Shown piece after piece: positions 4,778-35,475 of a stretch of 37,974 bases of DNA (position 1 is the stretch's first letter; each line of letters begins with the position of its first letter). Under the pieces are notes generated by a model that was given only the letters and a program-made list of their open reading frames with translations, ran no database searches and was not told where the DNA came from. Origin of the DNA: a virus (taxonomy: Duplodnaviria; Heunggongvirae; Uroviricota; Caudoviricetes). Location of the stretch: positions 1 to 37,974 of the IMG/VR virus record IMGVR_UViG_2778261505_000008; one strand, 5' to 3'. Position numbers and translations under genes: made by a program.

Positions 4778-5293
4778 TTAAATTGCGTGAATAGCGTGAC
4801 GAGGGAAGGGGAGAGTTACTGGCGCAAATGGTATATCGTCGTCAAACTCCATAGGTGGTTCGCTGTGATTTCCCTGCTGCTGAGGTTGCTGTCTTTGTTG
4901 CTGACCGTTATTTCGCTGAGGTGAAGACTGTTCATTGCCTCCTTGCTTGCCACCAAGCATTTGCATGGTTCCACCAACGCCCACGATGACTTCGGTAGTG
5001 AACCGATCCTGTCCGCTTTGATCCTGCCATTTTCTTGTCCGCAATTTGCCTTCAAGATAAACATCAGAGCCTTTTCGCAGATATTCGCTGGCAATTTCTG
5101 CCAGTTTCCCGCTCATTACCACGCGGTGCCACTCCGTCTGCTCCTTTTGCTCTCCAGTTTTCTTATCACGCCATTGTTCTGACGTAGCAACGGTAAGGTT
5201 TGCAAATGCCGTTCCTGATGGTGAATATCTGATTTCTGGATCATGCCCAAGGCGACCAATAATGATCACCTTATTTACGCCTCTGCTTGCCAT
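4778..5293 (-). CDS. ssb: Single-stranded DNA-binding protein with a 15-residue extension after the DDDIPF motif
   Basis: ORF track 4778..5293 (-). [16 protein letters not shown]...WHRVV...[12 protein letters not shown] is a canonical SSB OB fold, Gly/Gln-rich linker and acidic tip. The frame continues [15 protein letters not shown] before TAA, verified codon by codon on 4778-4849. Confidence 0.9.
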
Positions 5294-6308: not shown

Positions 6309-6441
6309 TTTTTGGAACTCCTGGCTGATTAAGTACGTCGATGAGTCGTTTCCATCCGTCACGTAATTTACGGGTGATTCGTTCAAGTAAAGATTCGGAA
6401 GGGCAGCCAGCAACAGGCCACCCTGCAATGGCATATTGCAT
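6301..6441 (-). CDS. cIII: CIII (FtsH inhibitor), 46 aa
   Basis: Not in the ORF track. Hand translation of the reverse complement of 6301-6441 gives MQYAIAGWPVAGCPSESLLERITRKLRDGWKRLIDVLNQPGVPKNG, matching remembered lambda CIII. AAGGAG sits 6 nt upstream of the ATG. Confidence 0.7.
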   Translation of the reverse strand: MQYAIAGWPVAGCPSESLLERITRKLRDGWKRLIDVLNQPGVPKNG

Positions 6442-6513
6442 GGTGTGCTCCTTATTTATACATAACGAAAAACGCCTCGAGTGAAGCGTTATTGGTATGC
6501 GGTAACGCCGCGC

Positions 6514-8250: not shown

Positions 8251-9603
<1,353 letters not shown>

Positions 9604-9722: not shown

Positions 9723-10016
9723 ATGGTTCGTGCAAACAAACGCAACGAGGCTCTAAGAATCGAGAGTGCGTTGCTTAACAAAATCGCAATGCTTGGAACT
9801 GAGAAGACAGCGGAAGCTGTGGGCGTTGATAAGTCGCAGATCAGCAGGTGGAAGAGGGACTGGATTCCAAAGTTCTCAATGCTGCTTGCTGTTCTTGAAT
9901 GGGGTGTCGTTGACGACGACATGGCTCGATTGGCACGACAAGTTGCTTCGATTCTCACCAATAAAAAACGCCCGGCGGCAACCGAGCGTTCTGAACAAAT
10001 CCAGATGGAATTCTGA
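9723..10016 (+). CDS. cII: CII transcriptional activator (97 aa)
   Basis: ATG at 9723. [97 protein letters not shown] matches remembered lambda CII. The track ORF starts upstream at 9663. Confidence 0.9.
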
Positions 10017-10048: not shown

Positions 10049-10195
10049 ATGACAAAACAACTCAGTCCTTACCAGGACAAAATTCACAAACACATACTAC
10101 GTGATCGCTTCCTGTCCAGCTTCAAGCAGCCTGGTCGATTCCGGGCTGAGTTGGAAAAAGTGAAGCTGATGCAGAAGGAGAAAGGTCATGAGTAA
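10049..10195 (+). CDS. Small basic protein (48 aa) between cII and the O-like gene
   Basis: Not in the ORF track. ATG at 10049 with CAGGAG 5 nt upstream. [48 protein letters not shown]. Stop overlaps the ATG of the next gene. Confidence 0.4.
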
Positions 10196-11048
10196 TCTTG
10201 CAACCGTAACACATTTAAGGCCTTCACAACGGCCTGTGGAGCGTCGTGTGGCAGAAGTTGAAGATGGTTATACCCGTCTTGCAAATGCCCTGTATGAAGA
10301 GCTTATCGGCGCAGATTTAACGAAAAATCAGAGCAAGGTTGCCCACGCCATATGCCGTAAAACATACGGCTACGGTAAAAAGATGGATCGCATCTCTGAT
10401 AGTCAGTTAGCTCAAATTACCAGGCTGCCAAGACAGAAGGTAAACAAGGCCAAGAATGAGCTTATCGCGATGAAGGTTATCCTTCGCGAAGGCCAGCAAA
10501 TCGGGCCTAACAAGAACATCGAGGAATGGCAAATCGAAGGGTGTCACTACTCTGGTGATAATGTCACTGCATTGGTGACAAAAAGTGTCACCAAAACGGT
10601 GACAGCCCTGTCACCAAAACAGGGACACACAAAAGAAACTATTACAAAAGAAAAAAGAAATAATAAAAACACTATGTCCGAAAGTGTTCGGACGGAGTGT
10701 GAAAAATCACCTGACCGTCACGAAGAAACCGACAAGGCATTCGAGGAAATATTCTGGTGTGCAGGCATGCGGAAAGCCGGGAAGAAAAACGCAGCTTCGG
10801 CATTCAGAACACAGTTCAGGGAATGGCGTAAAACTACCAGGGGTACGGCAAGCGAGTTTGCCACGATGCTGGCAGAAGACATCGCATGCAGGAATGGTAA
10901 GCAGTTCGGATTCGACAGGTTGTTACCATCGAGCTACCTGAACGGTCAACGCTGGAACGACGAGAAGCCAGAAACTATTCAACCACAATCCAAACCATCA
11001 TCCGCAATCACCGTATCGAAAACTGGCTACGTGTTTTTCGACAGGTGA
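10188..11048 (+). CDS. Replication initiator, lambda O-like N-terminal domain
   Basis: ORF track 10188..11048 (+). N-terminal [68 protein letters not shown] resembles the phage replication protein O N-domain. Origin-like repeats sit in the central linker. Confidence 0.75.
10562..10675. other. Candidate replication origin inside the O-like gene
   Basis: Dyad repeats ggtgaca-aaaag-tgtcacc (10574-10592) and ggtgaca-gccc-tgtcacc (10598-10615), plus tgtcact at 10562-10568, followed by an A-rich stretch at 10622-10675. Same layout as ori-lambda inside O. Confidence 0.55.
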
Positions 11049-11155
11049 ACCATGAAATCAAAAATCAAATCGCTACTGGTCGCTGGTTATAACCACGGTT
11101 GGTTAAGTATTTCGTTTGTCGATTTCTGGTTTAAAAATCTCAATCTGAGGGAATC

Positions 11156-13036
11156 ATGACGCCAAGTGAACTCAGCGACCTGCTTTGGGCGCAGGTTGAC
11201 AGGGTGGCTCCGCACCTGTTGCCAAACGGCAAGAAAGAGGGGCATGAGTGGGTTGCCGGTAACGTCAACGGTGACAAGGGAAACAGCCTTAAGGTCAACC
11301 TTAGCGGCAAGAAAAAATGGGCTGATTTCGCTGAGGGAGACGGCGGTGACATGCTTGATTTGTGGATGGCATGTCGTGGAATTAACCTGCATCAGGCTAT
11401 GCAGGAAGCGAAAGCATTTCTCGGTATCAAGGATGACGATCACCATTTCGATGCCAAACGTGAGAAAAAATTCTCCAGACCTGATCGCAAGAAAATCGCC
11501 CGCTACGTTACCAGAACAGAATCCCATCTTGAGTACCTGCAATCGCGTGGCATATCGCCAGAAATCGTAAAGCGCTACGAGGTTGTCAGCGGCAAGGTGT
11601 GGAATGGAGAACGAGAACTGGATGCCCTGGTGCTTCCGTACAAACGCGATGGTGAGTTGTTGCAGGTCAAGCGAATCAGCACTGAGCGCCCGGACGGGAA
11701 GAAAGTCATTATGGCAGAAGGTGATTGCGAACCTTGTCTGTTCGGATGGCAGGCTCTGGACGCTGGCGTGAGGGCGGTTGTACTTTGCGAAGGCGAAATT
11801 GATTGTATGAGCTATGCGCAATACGGCATCTCGGCGTTATCCGTGCCGTTTGGTGGCGGGAAAGGTGCTAAGCAACAGTGGATTGAGTTTGAGTATCACA
11901 ACCTCGACAGGTTTGAGGAGATATTCATCTCGATGGACGTTGATGATGTTGGTCGTGAAGCCGCAAGGGAAATCGCAAGCCGACTCGGTGAACATCGTTG
12001 CCGTCTTGTTACTCTGCCGTACAAAGACATCAACGAATGCCTGATGAACGGTGTTACCGAGGATGAAATCTGGCAGTACATCGGCATGGCATCCTACTTC
12101 GATCCTGAAGAACTCTACAGTGCGCGAGAGTTTTACCAGGACACTATCAACGCTTTCTACGGCAAGCAGCAGTATCTGTTTAATCCACCGTGGGAATCTC
12201 TGGCAGATAAATTCCAGTTCCGTGAGGCAGAGTTGACGCTGGTCAATGGTGTGAACGGCCACGGAAAAACGGAGGTTGTCGGGCATATGGCACTTGAGGC
12301 AATGCGTCAGGGTGTGAAGACGTGCATCGCGTCACTTGAGCTGAAGCCTGGTATTCTCCTTAAGCGCCTTACCCGTCAGGCGACGTGCTGCAAGATGCCG
12401 CCAGTGCTGGAAATTGACTCTGCATTTAAATTTTATGACGAGAGACTTTGGGTGTTTGGTCTGACCGGAACGGCGAAAGCCGACAGGCTGATCGAAATAT
12501 TCGACTACGCTCGCCGCCGATACGGTATCCAGTTATTCATCATCGACAGCCTGATGAAATGTGGCATAGGCGACGATGACTATAACGGGCAGAAGGCGTT
12601 TGTTGACTCGATTTGCGACTTCAAAAACAAAACAAACTCCCACGTCATTCTCGTTACTCACTCGCGAAAAGGAGACAGCGAAGAAAAACCAACCGGGAAA
12701 ATGGACGTAAAAGGCTCTGGAGCGATAACAGACCTGACAGACAATCTTTTCATCATCTGGCGTAACAAGGCTCGCGAGAGAGCGTTACAGAGAGTTCAGA
12801 GTGGTGAAAAGATGTCAGAGAAGGACGAACAGCTACTGGCATCTCCGGCATCTGTTTTGATGCTTGAAAAACAACGTAACGGCGAAGGTTGGGAAGGTGG
12901 TGTCCCGTTGTTCCTTGACGAGCAATCGCACCAGTTCCTGCAACTTGAATCAGGATCGCCATATAGCTACATCGCTAATATGCCGAAATCGGAATATGAC
13001 GAGGCGTGGCGACAGGAAAACGTGACGGAGTATTAA
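11156..13036 (+). CDS. Primase-helicase fusion: Toprim primase domain plus DnaB-like helicase C-terminal domain (626 aa)
   Basis: ORF track 11156..13036 (+), GAGGGA upstream. Toprim-like VVLCEGEIDCMSYAQYG; Walker A GVNGHGKT and Walker B-like LFIIDSL in the C-terminal half. Occupies the lambda P position. Confidence 0.8.
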   Translation: MTPSELSDLLWAQVDRVAPHLLPNGKKEGHEWVAGNVNGDKGNSLKVNLSGKKKWADFAEGDGGDMLDLWMACRGINLHQAMQEAKAFLGIKDDDHHFDAKREKKFSRPDRKKIARYVTRTESHLEYLQSRGISPEIVKRYEVVSGKVWNGERELDALVLPYKRDGELLQVKRISTERPDGKKVIMAEGDCEPCLFGWQALDAGVRAVVLCEGEIDCMSYAQYGISALSVPFGGGKGAKQQWIEFEYHNLDRFEEIFISMDVDDVGREAAREIASRLGEHRCRLVTLPYKDINECLMNGVTEDEIWQYIGMASYFDPEELYSAREFYQDTINAFYGKQQYLFNPPWESLADKFQFREAELTLVNGVNGHGKTEVVGHMALEAMRQGVKTCIASLELKPGILLKRLTRQATCCKMPPVLEIDSAFKFYDERLWVFGLTGTAKADRLIEIFDYARRRYGIQLFIIDSLMKCGIGDDDYNGQKAFVDSICDFKNKTNSHVILVTHSRKGDSEEKPTGKMDVKGSGAITDLTDNLFIIWRNKARERALQRVQSGEKMSEKDEQLLASPASVLMLEKQRNGEGWEGGVPLFLDEQSHQFLQLESGSPYSYIANMPKSEYDEAWRQENVTEY

Positions 13037-13065: not shown

Positions 13066-13097
13066 AGGCCTGCTGGTAATCGCAGGCCTTTTTATTT
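13066..13097 (+). terminator. Rho-independent terminator after the primase-helicase gene
   Basis: aggcctgc-tggtaatc-gcaggcct: 8-bp perfect stem, then ttttatttg. Confidence 0.7.
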
Positions 13098-13113
13098 GGG
13101 GGAGAGGGAAGTC

Positions 13114-13701
13114 ATGAAAAAACTAACCTTTGAAATTCGATCTCCAGCACATCAGCAAAACGCTATTCACGCAGTACAGCAAATCCTTCCAGACCCAACC
13201 AAACCAATCAATCAAATAACTCAGCAGAGACTTAAAGAAGTCCTTCTCTACGATGAGTTAACAGGGAAATTCACATGGAAAGTAAAGAAATGCCAGAGAA
13301 TGAATGCTGGGGATATCGCAGGGCATAAGAGTAGCGAAGGCTACTGGGTAATAAAAGTCGATGGAAAACTTTATAAGGCACACAGGCTGGCGTGGCTCTA
13401 TATGAATGGCAGTCTACCAAAAAGTGATATCGACCACATAAATCTCGTTAGGGATGACAATCGTATAGCAAATCTTAGATTGGCAACTCGATCTCAAAAC
13501 ATCCAAAACGTAAACAAAAAGGCAAATAACAAATCAGGATATAAAGGCGTTTCATGGGATAAGAAATCAAGAAAATGGAGGGCGCAAATCGTAATCAACA
13601 AGAGGAAAGTTAATCTTGGGTTTTACGATGACCCAAAGGAAGCTCATAAAGTATATGCAAATAAAGCGGATGAATGTTTCGGCGAATTTGCGAGGTATTA
13701 A
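13114..13701 (+). CDS. HNH endonuclease with a NinB-like N-terminal segment fused in frame
   Basis: ATG at 13114 with GGAGAGGGAAG upstream. HNH/AP2-type core ...[35 protein letters not shown]...GYKGVSWDKKSRKWRAQI.... The first 32 aa MKKLTFEIRSPAHQQNAIHAVQQILPDPTKPI match my recollection of the lambda NinB N-terminus and are absent from the paralog at 36510-37010. Confidence 0.85.
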   Translation: MKKLTFEIRSPAHQQNAIHAVQQILPDPTKPINQITQQRLKEVLLYDELTGKFTWKVKKCQRMNAGDIAGHKSSEGYWVIKVDGKLYKAHRLAWLYMNGSLPKSDIDHINLVRDDNRIANLRLATRSQNIQNVNKKANNKSGYKGVSWDKKSRKWRAQIVINKRKVNLGFYDDPKEAHKVYANKADECFGEFARY

Positions 13702-13702
13702 A

Positions 13703-14131
13703 ATGAAATGTGTCAAATATCACCTTACTAATGAATCTATAAGATATAACGCCATTCAGTATCTTAGGACATGCGATTTAGACATCATTGTCGAGTTTAA
13801 GCAGCGCAACCGCAGCTTAGACCAGAATCGAAAGCTTTGGGCCTGCTTAGGTGACGTCTCTCGTCAGGTTGAATGGCATGGTCGCTGGCTGGATGCAGAA
13901 AGCTGGAAGTGTGTGTTTACCGCAGCATTAAAGCAGCAGGATGTTGTTCCTAACCTTGCCGGGAATGGCTTTGTAGTAATAGGCCAGTCAACCAGCAGGA
14001 TGCGTGTAAACGAATTTGCGGAGCTATTAGAGCTTATACAGGCATTCGGTACAGAGCGTGGCGTTAAGTGGTCAGACGAAGCGAGACTGGCTCTGGAGTG
14101 GAAAGCGAGATGGGGAGATCGGGCTGCATGA
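13703..14131 (+). CDS. ninB: NinB (Orf-family recombination mediator) with a divergent N-terminus
   Basis: ATG at 13703 with GAGGT upstream, 1 nt after the HNH stop. From ...KQRNRSLDQNRKLWACLGDVSRQVEWHGRWLDAESWKCVFTAALKQQDVVPNLAGNGFVVIGQSTSRM... to the end it matches remembered lambda NinB. The first 28 aa are a diverged version of the NinB N-terminus. Confidence 0.85.
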   Translation: MKCVKYHLTNESIRYNAIQYLRTCDLDIIVEFKQRNRSLDQNRKLWACLGDVSRQVEWHGRWLDAESWKCVFTAALKQQDVVPNLAGNGFVVIGQSTSRMRVNEFAELLELIQAFGTERGVKWSDEARLALEWKARWGDRAA

Positions 14132-17128: not shown

Positions 17129-17203
17129 GGGTCAGTCGTATAAAGGTCATTACGGAAGGCTGTTAACCTTCTTATCGTGGTTCGAGTCCACGCTGTCCCG
17201 CCA
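17129..17203 (+). tRNA. tRNA-Asn (anticodon GUU) candidate, 75 nt
   Basis: Hand fold: acceptor gggtcag/ctgtccc (one U-U mismatch), anticodon stem gaagg/ccttc with loop CUGUUAA, T-arm cgtgg-TTCGAGT-ccacg, discriminator G, encoded CCA. Confidence 0.6.
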
Positions 17204-17208
17204 AATAT

Positions 17209-17284
17209 GCTGGTTTAGCTCCAATGGTAGAGCAGTCGCCTTGTAAGCGAATGGGTAGCGGTTCAAGTCCGTTAACCAGCACCA
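17209..17284 (+). tRNA. tRNA-Thr (anticodon UGU) candidate, 76 nt
   Basis: Hand fold: perfect 7-bp acceptor gctggtt/aaccagc, D-arm gctc-caatggta-gagc, anticodon loop CUUGUAA, T-arm agcgg-TTCAAGT-ccgtt, discriminator A, encoded CCA. Confidence 0.7.
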
Positions 17285-35377: not shown

Positions 35378-35475
35378 TTCGCTTGGATGCGGCAAAGAAA
35401 TCAAAACAGTGAAGCCCCAACTGCGGGAACAGTCAGGGCTTCGGTATCGTAAAACCACGCATAGGAATTAACGAC

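Follow-up and report, generated by a model that had tools for sequence, protein, structure and literature searches.

Organization of the replication cassette

We analyzed a stretch of 37,974 nucleotides from a virus of the Caudoviricetes (IMG/VR record IMGVR_UViG_2778261505_000008, positions 1 to 37,974; this whole stretch is hereafter the window) and in particular its replication cassette. An original prediction, made by a model from the sequence letters, had placed at 10188-13036 a hybrid replication module in which a lambda O-like initiator is paired with a primase-helicase fusion instead of P. Four open reading frames (ORFs) are intact here, all on the plus strand: a DUF2740 ORF of 48 amino acids (aa) at 10049-10195, the replication initiator of 286 aa at 10188-11048, an ORF of 35 codons at 11052-11159 and a bifunctional primase-helicase of 626 aa at 11156-13036. 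Both small ORFs had been predicted to flank the module and exist as described. The initiator consists of an O-type winged-helix N-terminal domain (N-domain), a linker predicted to be disordered and a helical C-terminal domain (C-domain).

The cassette sits in a lambdoid early-right operon, with a cI-type repressor gene (8652-9284, minus strand; HTH_3 and Peptidase_S24 domains), a cro-like gene and cII (Phage_CII, E = 3e-48) upstream, and NinB and Dam methylase genes downstream. The remaining gene content is that of a prophage: integrase, Erf, a phage-encoded SSB (4778-5293), N, cI, cro, cII, nin genes, a Q-type antiterminator, lysis and head genes, terminase and portal. The window is quite probably an intact P22-like (Lederbergvirus-type) lambdoid prophage with a replication cassette of a kind whose first annotation was in Salmonella phage ES18, which would work by the mechanism proposed in the Discussion.

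The initiator protein

The N-domain of the initiator is of the lambda O type, as had been predicted. Phage_rep_O (PF04492) matches aa 20-114, the origin-recognition domain (coding region 10245-10529, plus strand), with E = 1.2e-37 and 128.8 bits against a cut-off of 28.7, and TIGR01610 (phage_O_Nterm) matches with E = 1.7e-30 (105.3 bits; cut-off 45.5). The protein is 49% identical to aa 1-155 of lambda O, and beyond that region no similarity was detectable by tblastn. In the AlphaFold model (mean predicted local distance difference test, pLDDT, of 60.5), the helices and strands of aa 21-107 are predicted to form a winged helix, aa 115-175 have pLDDT values below 50, consistent with disorder, and helices follow at aa 179-252 with pLDDT values of 78-91. 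The disordered stretch is exactly the part encoded by the iterons and the A-rich DNA described below, as in lambda. Comparison of the initiator with PDB sequences gave no match. A fold search in BFVD returned weak matches only (template modeling, TM, scores of 0.2-0.3), to HTH/RepA-like phage initiators, because the initiator linker is flexible; it was silent on the C-domain.

The C-domain (aa 179-252; coding region 10722-10943, plus strand) matches PHROG 33384 (E = 1.7e-88); taken alone, it is without a family in Pfam or NCBIfam. As a query in word-indexed protein searches, it recovered mainly partial or near-identical proteins and few distant relatives. We presume that this putative domain serves in partner recruitment, on the comparative grounds given below.

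A candidate origin within the initiator gene

Four 19-bp dyad iterons, TGTCAC-N7-GTGACA, each with at most one mismatch, occupy 10542-10627 (starts at 10542, 10562, 10586 and 10609; no strand assigned). Their spacing of 20/24/23 bp, roughly two helical turns, is that of the lambda iterons annotated in NC_001416, and the lambda-type iterons of ES18 align with them in register (alignment A1). When the pattern was scanned with up to two mismatches across the entire 38-kb window, five matches were found against 1.48 expected, and none of 100 shuffles reached five. Of these, four cluster within 86 bp, and the fifth (11258, two mismatches) is no more than expected by chance.

The iterons are followed on their right by an A-rich, low-G+C tract (10629-10675, no strand assigned), a putative DNA-unwinding element. 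The G+C content drops to 0.20-0.30 at 10620-10679 and the AT skew rises to 0.79. The position of this tract is that of the A/T-rich region of lambda ori, and it aligns with the A-rich stretch of ES18 and lambda. The original prediction had put dyad iterons and an A-rich stretch at 10562-10675. Both are present, but that range misses the first iteron, and the iterons number four, from 10542, rather than about three. The iterons would be bound by the initiator, which would then open the A/T-rich region; binding is suggested by the iteron sequence changing along with the type of N-domain among relatives (see below).

The right edge of the candidate origin is formed by a short element with an inverted and a direct repeat, TAAAAACAYTWTGTCCGAA-N4-TTCGGAC (10664-10700, no strand assigned), of which inverted repeat I7 spans 10669-10682 and 10687-10700. 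This element is kept, in part invariantly, in six cassettes, including those of Pantoea and Rahnella, whatever their iterons (alignment A7), and it travels with the block of initiator C-domain and primase-helicase. Since the element also codes for aa 160-171, selection at the DNA level and at the protein level are not separable here.

The primase-helicase

The 626-aa protein encoded at 11156-13036 is of the T7 gp4/Twinkle kind. It matches PHROG 239 ('DNA primase/helicase', E = 8.9e-171) and, in a phmmer search of the PDB, T7 gp4 (E = 4.7e-23) and Twinkle (E = 2.2e-13). Among 1.84 billion cluster representatives, 8,291 relatives were found at E ≤ 1e-3 and 854 at E ≤ 1e-30. The AlphaFold model, built on an alignment of 111 relatives, has a pLDDT of 94.5. 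Foldseek placed the T7 replisome first (5ikn; E = 1.4e-26 with chain G; target TM score 0.74 over 502 columns with chain J), then Twinkle (7t8c, E = 8.8e-25), followed by DnaB helicases and the zinc-binding and RNA-polymerase fragment of Aquifex DnaG. In the model, the overall fold and the order of domains match those of gp4.

The Toprim catalytic core (aa 207-298; 11774-12049, plus strand) is recognized by Toprim_2 at aa 209-296 (E = 3.1e-12, 47.1 bits against a cut-off of 22.1). The helicase domain (aa 355-594; 12218-12937, plus strand) is of superfamily 4 (SF4, DnaB/gp4-type); AAA_25 matches it just over the cut-off (28 against 27 bits) and DnaB_C just under it (23.8 against 27 bits), and the helicase part of the model aligns to gp4D and DnaB structures. 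The Toprim plus DnaB-like fusion that had been predicted is thus recovered. The domain search proposed as a check found Phage_rep_O and Toprim as anticipated; DnaB_C stayed below its threshold, and AAA_25 passed in its place.

Residue conservation was assessed in a 124-sequence family alignment with identities of 35-62%. The window protein keeps every strongly conserved catalytic position. In the Toprim core, E212, G213, E214, D216, D261, D263, K290, D291 and N293 are conserved in at least 90% of the family, and all are kept. Conserved in the helicase domain are G365, G370 and K371 of Walker A, as well as E395, D464, H502, K505, R536, K572 and R574; Walker A and B, the motif-H3 His and the arginine finger of SF4 helicases are all represented. 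From the conserved catalytic residues the protein would be expected to have primase activity. The sole departure from the ≥90% consensus is A565, where 90% of the family has D. This residue is shared by loci L021, L014, L086 and L087 and by phages Sf101 and ES18; being common to the enterobacterial relatives checked, it is not a lesion of the window copy. The L021 protein differs from that of the window by L160I and M311T, both outside the conserved motifs. M311 appears confined to the window (T in six of six relatives compared), and L160, which among the differences listed differs only from L021, looks innocuous.

The N-terminal region departs from that of gp4. At aa 24-65 (11225-11350, plus strand) it is zinc-ribbon-like, with beta-strands at aa 26-64 in the model and a match to TIGR01391 (dnaG) at aa 26-143, by which the protein is homologous to the DnaG N-terminus in this region. 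However, Cys/His zinc ligands are absent from aa 24-65 in the window, and no conserved Cys/His column exists across the 124 family representatives. The ligand-free ribbon has a near-invariant motif of its own (G35, G39, G42, S44, G51, W55, D57, F58, G64 and D65). No Pfam family, including the primase zinc finger, matches aa 1-205, and NCBIfam gives weak, sub-threshold matches to DnaG and PRK07078 only.

The 35-codon ORF

Between the initiator and primase-helicase genes lies the equivalent of ES18 gp60 (11052-11159, plus strand; PHROG 21848, E = 4.4e-26), whose stop codon overlaps the primase-helicase start codon (ATGA). In six diverged cassettes this ORF has exactly 35 codons, its motif MK..IK.LL[IV]AGYNHG is conserved and its stop overlaps or abuts the primase-helicase ATG. 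Synonymous differences among the six are many, about as frequent as non-synonymous ones. By its conservation it looks like a real gene.

No loader or polymerase gene in the window

A tblastn search with lambda P found no homologue in the window (best E = 0.34), and the next large gene after the initiator is that of the primase-helicase. Searches with the lambda O C-terminus and with Ren by the same method also found nothing in the window. Since the P search was empty, a hidden P-type loader was ruled out. Among the ORFs scanned up to ~24 kb there is no helicase loader or DNA polymerase; the ORFs beyond ~24 kb look like P22-type virion genes by size and position. As had been proposed, the partner is something other than a P-type loader, and the comparisons support the interpretation that an O-like initiator is paired with a primase-helicase instead of P.

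The cassette is a known ES18-type module

The cassette is not a new hybrid; it is an already known module of the ES18 type. Segment 10000-13100 is 98.2% identical over 100% coverage to vB_EcoP-720R6 (ON470605), 98.6-98.7% identical over 99% to Sf101 (KJ832078) and mEp043 (JQ182734), and 91.5% identical over 99% to Salmonella phage SEN22. From ~10615 on, it is 88% identical to ES18, epsilon34 and g341c, and from ~10664 on, 97-98% identical to the Stx2 phages phi24B, Min27 and Stx2a_F403. At least 80% of the segment is present in 168 of 5,426 complete Escherichia coli genomes, and some part of it in 2,025. Sf101, mEp043 and vB_EcoP-720R6 have the same head (the N-domain that recognizes the origin), iterons and partner, with only point differences in the cassette. 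Judged by this 98-99% identity to isolated phages, the cassette is one that works in live phages. The idea of a defective remnant was rejected, given that no cassette ORF is disrupted and that viable phages have counterparts of each with 98-99% identity.

The primase-helicase has been labelled 'hypothetical protein' (KJ832078, JQ182734), 'DNA primase protein' (a later mEp043 record) and 'DNA primase/helicase' (ON470605). In the ES18 record (AY736146), gp59 is described as lambda-O-like and its gene, 59, contains a rep_origin annotated as 'similar to lambda ori'; gp60 is listed as unknown, and the entry for gp61 reads 'putative primase/helicase; similar to phage T7 gene 4'. The epsilon34 genes correspond to the ES18 replication region (PMC2629481), the ES18-type module with an O-like initiator and a primase/helicase has been described (PMC10307801), the phi24B version has Toprim and gp4D domains and an intein (PMC3430580), and the Stx-phage version has been typed as 'Eru5' (PMC8951638).

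ES18 gp59-gp60-gp61 share with the window an initiator with an internal origin, a 35-aa ORF and a 626-aa primase-helicase, placed between cII and the nin region; the primase-helicases are 94% identical, and the C-domains and small ORFs 97% each. In contrast, ES18 has a lambda-type N-domain and iterons, whereas the head of the window is a diverged O-type (49% identity over the N-terminal 143 aa). The ES18-type cassette is also found in epsilon34, g341c, SEN22 and vB_SosS_Oslo. The 'Eru5' Stx phages (Stx2a_F403, phi24B and Min27; PMC8951638, PMC3430580) resemble the window in the C-domain (98%), a variant of the 35-aa ORF (71%) and the primase-helicase (97-99%), but have an HTH_36-type N-domain and three iterons of another sequence, and phi24B has an intein in the helicase Walker A.

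With lambda the window shares the O N-domain family, four intragenic dyad iterons spaced 20/24/23 bp with an A-rich tract to their right, origin DNA that encodes the interdomain linker, and the early-right operon position after cII. It differs in the iteron sequence, in a C-domain without detectable similarity to the lambda O C-terminus, and in the absence of P, the loader that captures host DnaB; the partner in the window is itself helicase and primase. T7 gp4 and Twinkle have the same succession of ribbon-like N-terminus, Toprim RNA-polymerase domain, linker and SF4 helicase, with conserved catalytic motifs. Identity is, however, only ~21%, and the ribbon of the window lacks zinc ligands, so that the N-terminal Cys4 domain of gp4 is not matched. 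The window phage is also temperate and without its own polymerase, and its primase-helicase is paired with an origin-binding initiator, which T7 lacks. P22 genes 18 and 12 provide an O-like initiator and a phage-encoded helicase without a P-type loader (PMC8022706, PMC10307801). According to the account of Wickner (1984) in PMC8022706, P22 gp12 is a DnaB-like helicase without a primase domain that works with host DnaG; the partner in the window differs by its Toprim primase half. The primase-helicase has been called 'nonhomologous' to P22 gp12 (PMC10307801).

Origin-recognition heads are exchanged in front of one conserved block

The initiators of the window, ES18 and phi24B carry a near-identical C-domain behind diverged O-type, lambda O-type and HTH_36 N-domains, respectively (alignment A2). 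At the DNA level, identity between the window and ES18 picks up again inside iteron 4 and runs through the A-rich tract onward (alignment A1). We sampled 80 IMG/VR loci with a primase-helicase of at least 99% identity and checked the upstream order wherever enough upstream DNA was available. The order C-domain, 35-codon ORF, primase-helicase was found at 79 of the 80, that is, at all loci with enough upstream DNA; the heads are of the window type at ~56 loci and of the HTH_36 type at ~20. A scan of one genome per species added four loci (Shimwellia, Pseudescherichia, Pantoea and Rahnella), with primase-helicase identity down to 59%, and all four have the same order.

The iterons differ with the head. 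The window and Pseudescherichia have four copies of TGTCAC-N7-GTGACA, ES18 has four lambda-type copies, phi24B three copies of GGGGCAGGAGCTGCCC spaced 21/24 bp, Pantoea four copies of TTACCCGAATCAGGTAA spaced 19/24/23 bp, and Rahnella two sets of three 11-bp repeats. At least five origin-recognition heads, each with its own iterons, are thus joined to one block made up of the short DNA element, the C-domain, the 35-codon ORF and the primase-helicase. This pattern agrees with the classical rule for lambdoid phages: specificity resides in the N-domain together with its iterons, and the C-domain follows the partner. In a more distant locus (L089), a 46%-identical primase-helicase lies downstream of an initiator with a homologous C-domain (hmmsearch E = 3e-7).

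Selfish elements in the cassettes of relatives

The phi24B protein labelled 'P' (L002, HM208303, 2996-5902) is the same primase-helicase with an insert of ~342 aa in Walker A (GHGK/ACPL…ATHN/TEVV), which has been described as an intein (PMC3430580). If splicing restores GHGKT, this intein would start with Ala rather than Cys, a non-canonical class. Its site maps to the K371/T372 junction of the window protein (nt 12268/12269), where the window copy has no intein. Position aa 372 is likewise where several family representatives, 900-1050 aa in length, are split. In L062 (3510-4004), and in L063 and L076, a gene for a 164-aa HNH-type endonuclease separates the 35-codon ORF from the primase-helicase start. 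The same arrangement occurs in two E. coli matches (H42 and H43), and these cassettes are otherwise near-identical. The HNH gene and the intein in relatives suggest that selfish elements often target the replication module; the window cassette itself is free of homing endonuclease and intein.

Other features of the window

The DUF2740 ORF (10049-10195, plus strand; Pfam DUF2740, E = 8.9e-29) lies between cII and the initiator gene, whose start it overlaps by 8 nt. Its match to PHROG 1913 carries the label 'tail protein', which is implausible and almost certainly a mislabel given this position. The ORF is outside the conserved primase-helicase block and is not cassette-specific; ES18 has another small gene, gp58, there. 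Directly 3′ of the primase-helicase gene, a terminator scan found an intrinsic-terminator-like hairpin and T-run (13066-13095, plus strand) with an 8-bp stem containing six G-C pairs followed by TTTTATTT; the fold of the wider segment alone is not significant (z = -1.3). A strong terminator-like hairpin with a T-run also lies on the minus strand at 9965-9992, within the 3′ end of cII, a position occupied in lambda by the terminator of the oop antisense RNA. Rfam found nothing within 9-13.5 kb, including this oop-like site.

Elsewhere in the window, tRNA-Asn(GTT) and tRNA-Thr(TGT) genes lie at 17129-17284 (plus strand), between the Q-type antiterminator gene and the lysis genes. Rfam matched the lambda cIII thermoregulator element at 6396-6454 (minus strand, 88.5 bits) and the P22 sar antisense RNA at 35408-35474 (minus strand, 76.6 bits). 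The sar RNA belongs to the P22 immI region, and its presence would be consistent with a P22-like phage whose early-left region is lambda-like. Within 13096-14131, a 587-bp insertion relative to Sf101 (13210-13796) interrupts the 5′ end of ninB. In the ORF at 13096-13701, the first ~31 residues of NinB are joined to an HNH_3 plus AP2 homing-endonuclease-like protein (HNH_3, E = 1e-16), and the insertion supplies a diverged substitute for the NinB N-terminus, such that the ORF at 13616-14131 matches nearly the whole NinB profile (E = 4e-46). None of the 80 related IMG/VR loci has this HNH segment.

Discussion

We propose the following mechanism for the cassette. Transcription from the early-right promoter would express, as a single unit, the genes from cII through the primase-helicase, with the DUF2740 ORF, the initiator gene and the 35-aa ORF in between. 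The O-type winged-helix N-domain of the initiator would bind the four dyad iterons in the DNA encoding its own disordered linker, and, like the lambda O-some, the resulting complex would force open the A-rich tract next to it. The C-domain of the initiator, possibly with the 35-aa protein, would then bring in the phage's own hexameric primase-helicase of the gp4/Twinkle type; the corresponding step in lambda is recruitment of the P-DnaB complex by a different O C-domain. The primase-helicase would unwind the DNA and prime for the host polymerase, probably DNA polymerase III (Pol III), with SSB encoded by the phage.

Three rival explanations were weighed against this mechanism. It is highly improbable that the repeats at 10542-10627 are merely a by-product of a repetitive linker peptide, with the true origin elsewhere. 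The repeats do lie within coding sequence and encode a VT-rich repeat, and their binding by the initiator is putative, but each of them is a dyad, which a peptide repeat does not require. Their lambda spacing, and their register with the ES18 iterons, at the place where the ES18 record annotates its replication origin, argue in the same direction, as do the different repeats at the equivalent place in relatives with other N-domains. In addition, weak protein constraint would be expected on the segment they encode, since it is predicted to be disordered. Several points weigh against the mechanism: the initiator model is of only moderate quality (mean pLDDT 60.5), the searchable literature yielded no experimental study of this module type, and the absence of any zinc ligand from the ribbon means that primase activity is not assured. 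The zinc-binding domain of T7 gp4 is needed for template-directed primer synthesis. The 626-aa protein might then be the replicative helicase only, with a silent or structural primase half, as proposed for metazoan Twinkle, and host DnaG as the primase. The ribbon without Cys/His ligands, in the window and across the 124 representatives, and the lack of a Pfam primase zinc-finger family at aa 1-205 speak for such an arrangement. We nevertheless consider it decidedly unlikely: the Toprim acidic residues and the K290-D291-x-N293 motif are conserved in at least 90% of a family with 35-62% identity and are all present in the window, the near-invariant motif of the Cys-less ribbon suggests continued selection for a function, and the helicase domain, being gp4-like, shows no evident surface of the DnaB N-terminal type on which DnaG could dock.

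The putative contact between C-domain and primase-helicase has co-inheritance as its one line of evidence, and part of the comparative record counts against it. In L090, the initiator upstream of a 43%-identical primase-helicase has a different C-terminus. A domain like the C-domain of the initiator (…PSTYLNG/QxRWEDE motif) also occurs as free-standing proteins of 84-120 aa on other phage contigs (L091, 956-1318; L092, 3501-3854; L093, 3501-3755). Two of these three (L091 and L092) have no primase-helicase within reach; that of L093 lies directly upstream of a 291-aa SF4 helicase-only protein. The free-standing domains and L090 suggest that the C-domain may have a more general role: its linkage to the primase-helicase is strict in every enterobacterial lambdoid locus examined, but the domain is not exclusive to that partner. 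One could suppose that the C-domain makes no contact with the primase-helicase, and that either the 35-aa protein is the adaptor or loader, or the C-domain is generic (for oligomerization, single-stranded DNA or a host protein) and the helicase is self-loading. The 35-codon ORF is a constant feature, invariable in length and with a conserved motif, and is translationally coupled to the primase-helicase; the related domain stands free in phages without an adjacent primase-helicase; and gp4-type helicases, as known from T7, can load without a dedicated loader. Conversely, L089 and L090 lack a 35-aa ORF, their initiator gene abutting the helicase gene, and L089 still keeps the C-domain; the equivalent position of lambda O is the P-binding part; and the mosaic joints fall exactly between head plus iterons and C-domain plus partner. 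On these grounds we hold the absence of contact to be fairly unlikely, and recruitment of the primase-helicase through the C-domain remains our preferred explanation.

A bolder reading of the same comparisons, which we offer tentatively as possible rather than probable, is that the conserved block is a loader-free, plug-in replisome starter. The heads, five of which were seen, would be spliceable, the T7-type primase-helicase would be recruited to a lambda-type O-some and work with host Pol III, and template recognition would proceed without a zinc finger.

The interest of the cassette lies in a module type apparently without experimental study and in a primase without a zinc finger. It would be a convenient system in which to examine (i) how an O-type initiator hands the origin to a self-contained primase-helicase instead of P-DnaB; and (ii) how priming, and cooperation with the host polymerase, are achieved by a gp4-like enzyme that has no zinc ligands. 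For annotation, the labels of initiator, internal origin and primase-helicase can be given with confidence, and the prophage looks replication-competent. The cassette is common, both in E. coli genomes and in the 'Eru5' Stx2 phages. If the proposed mechanism is true, replication from it would need no host DnaB, DnaC or DnaG, nor the DnaK/DnaJ/GrpE step that frees DnaB from lambda P.

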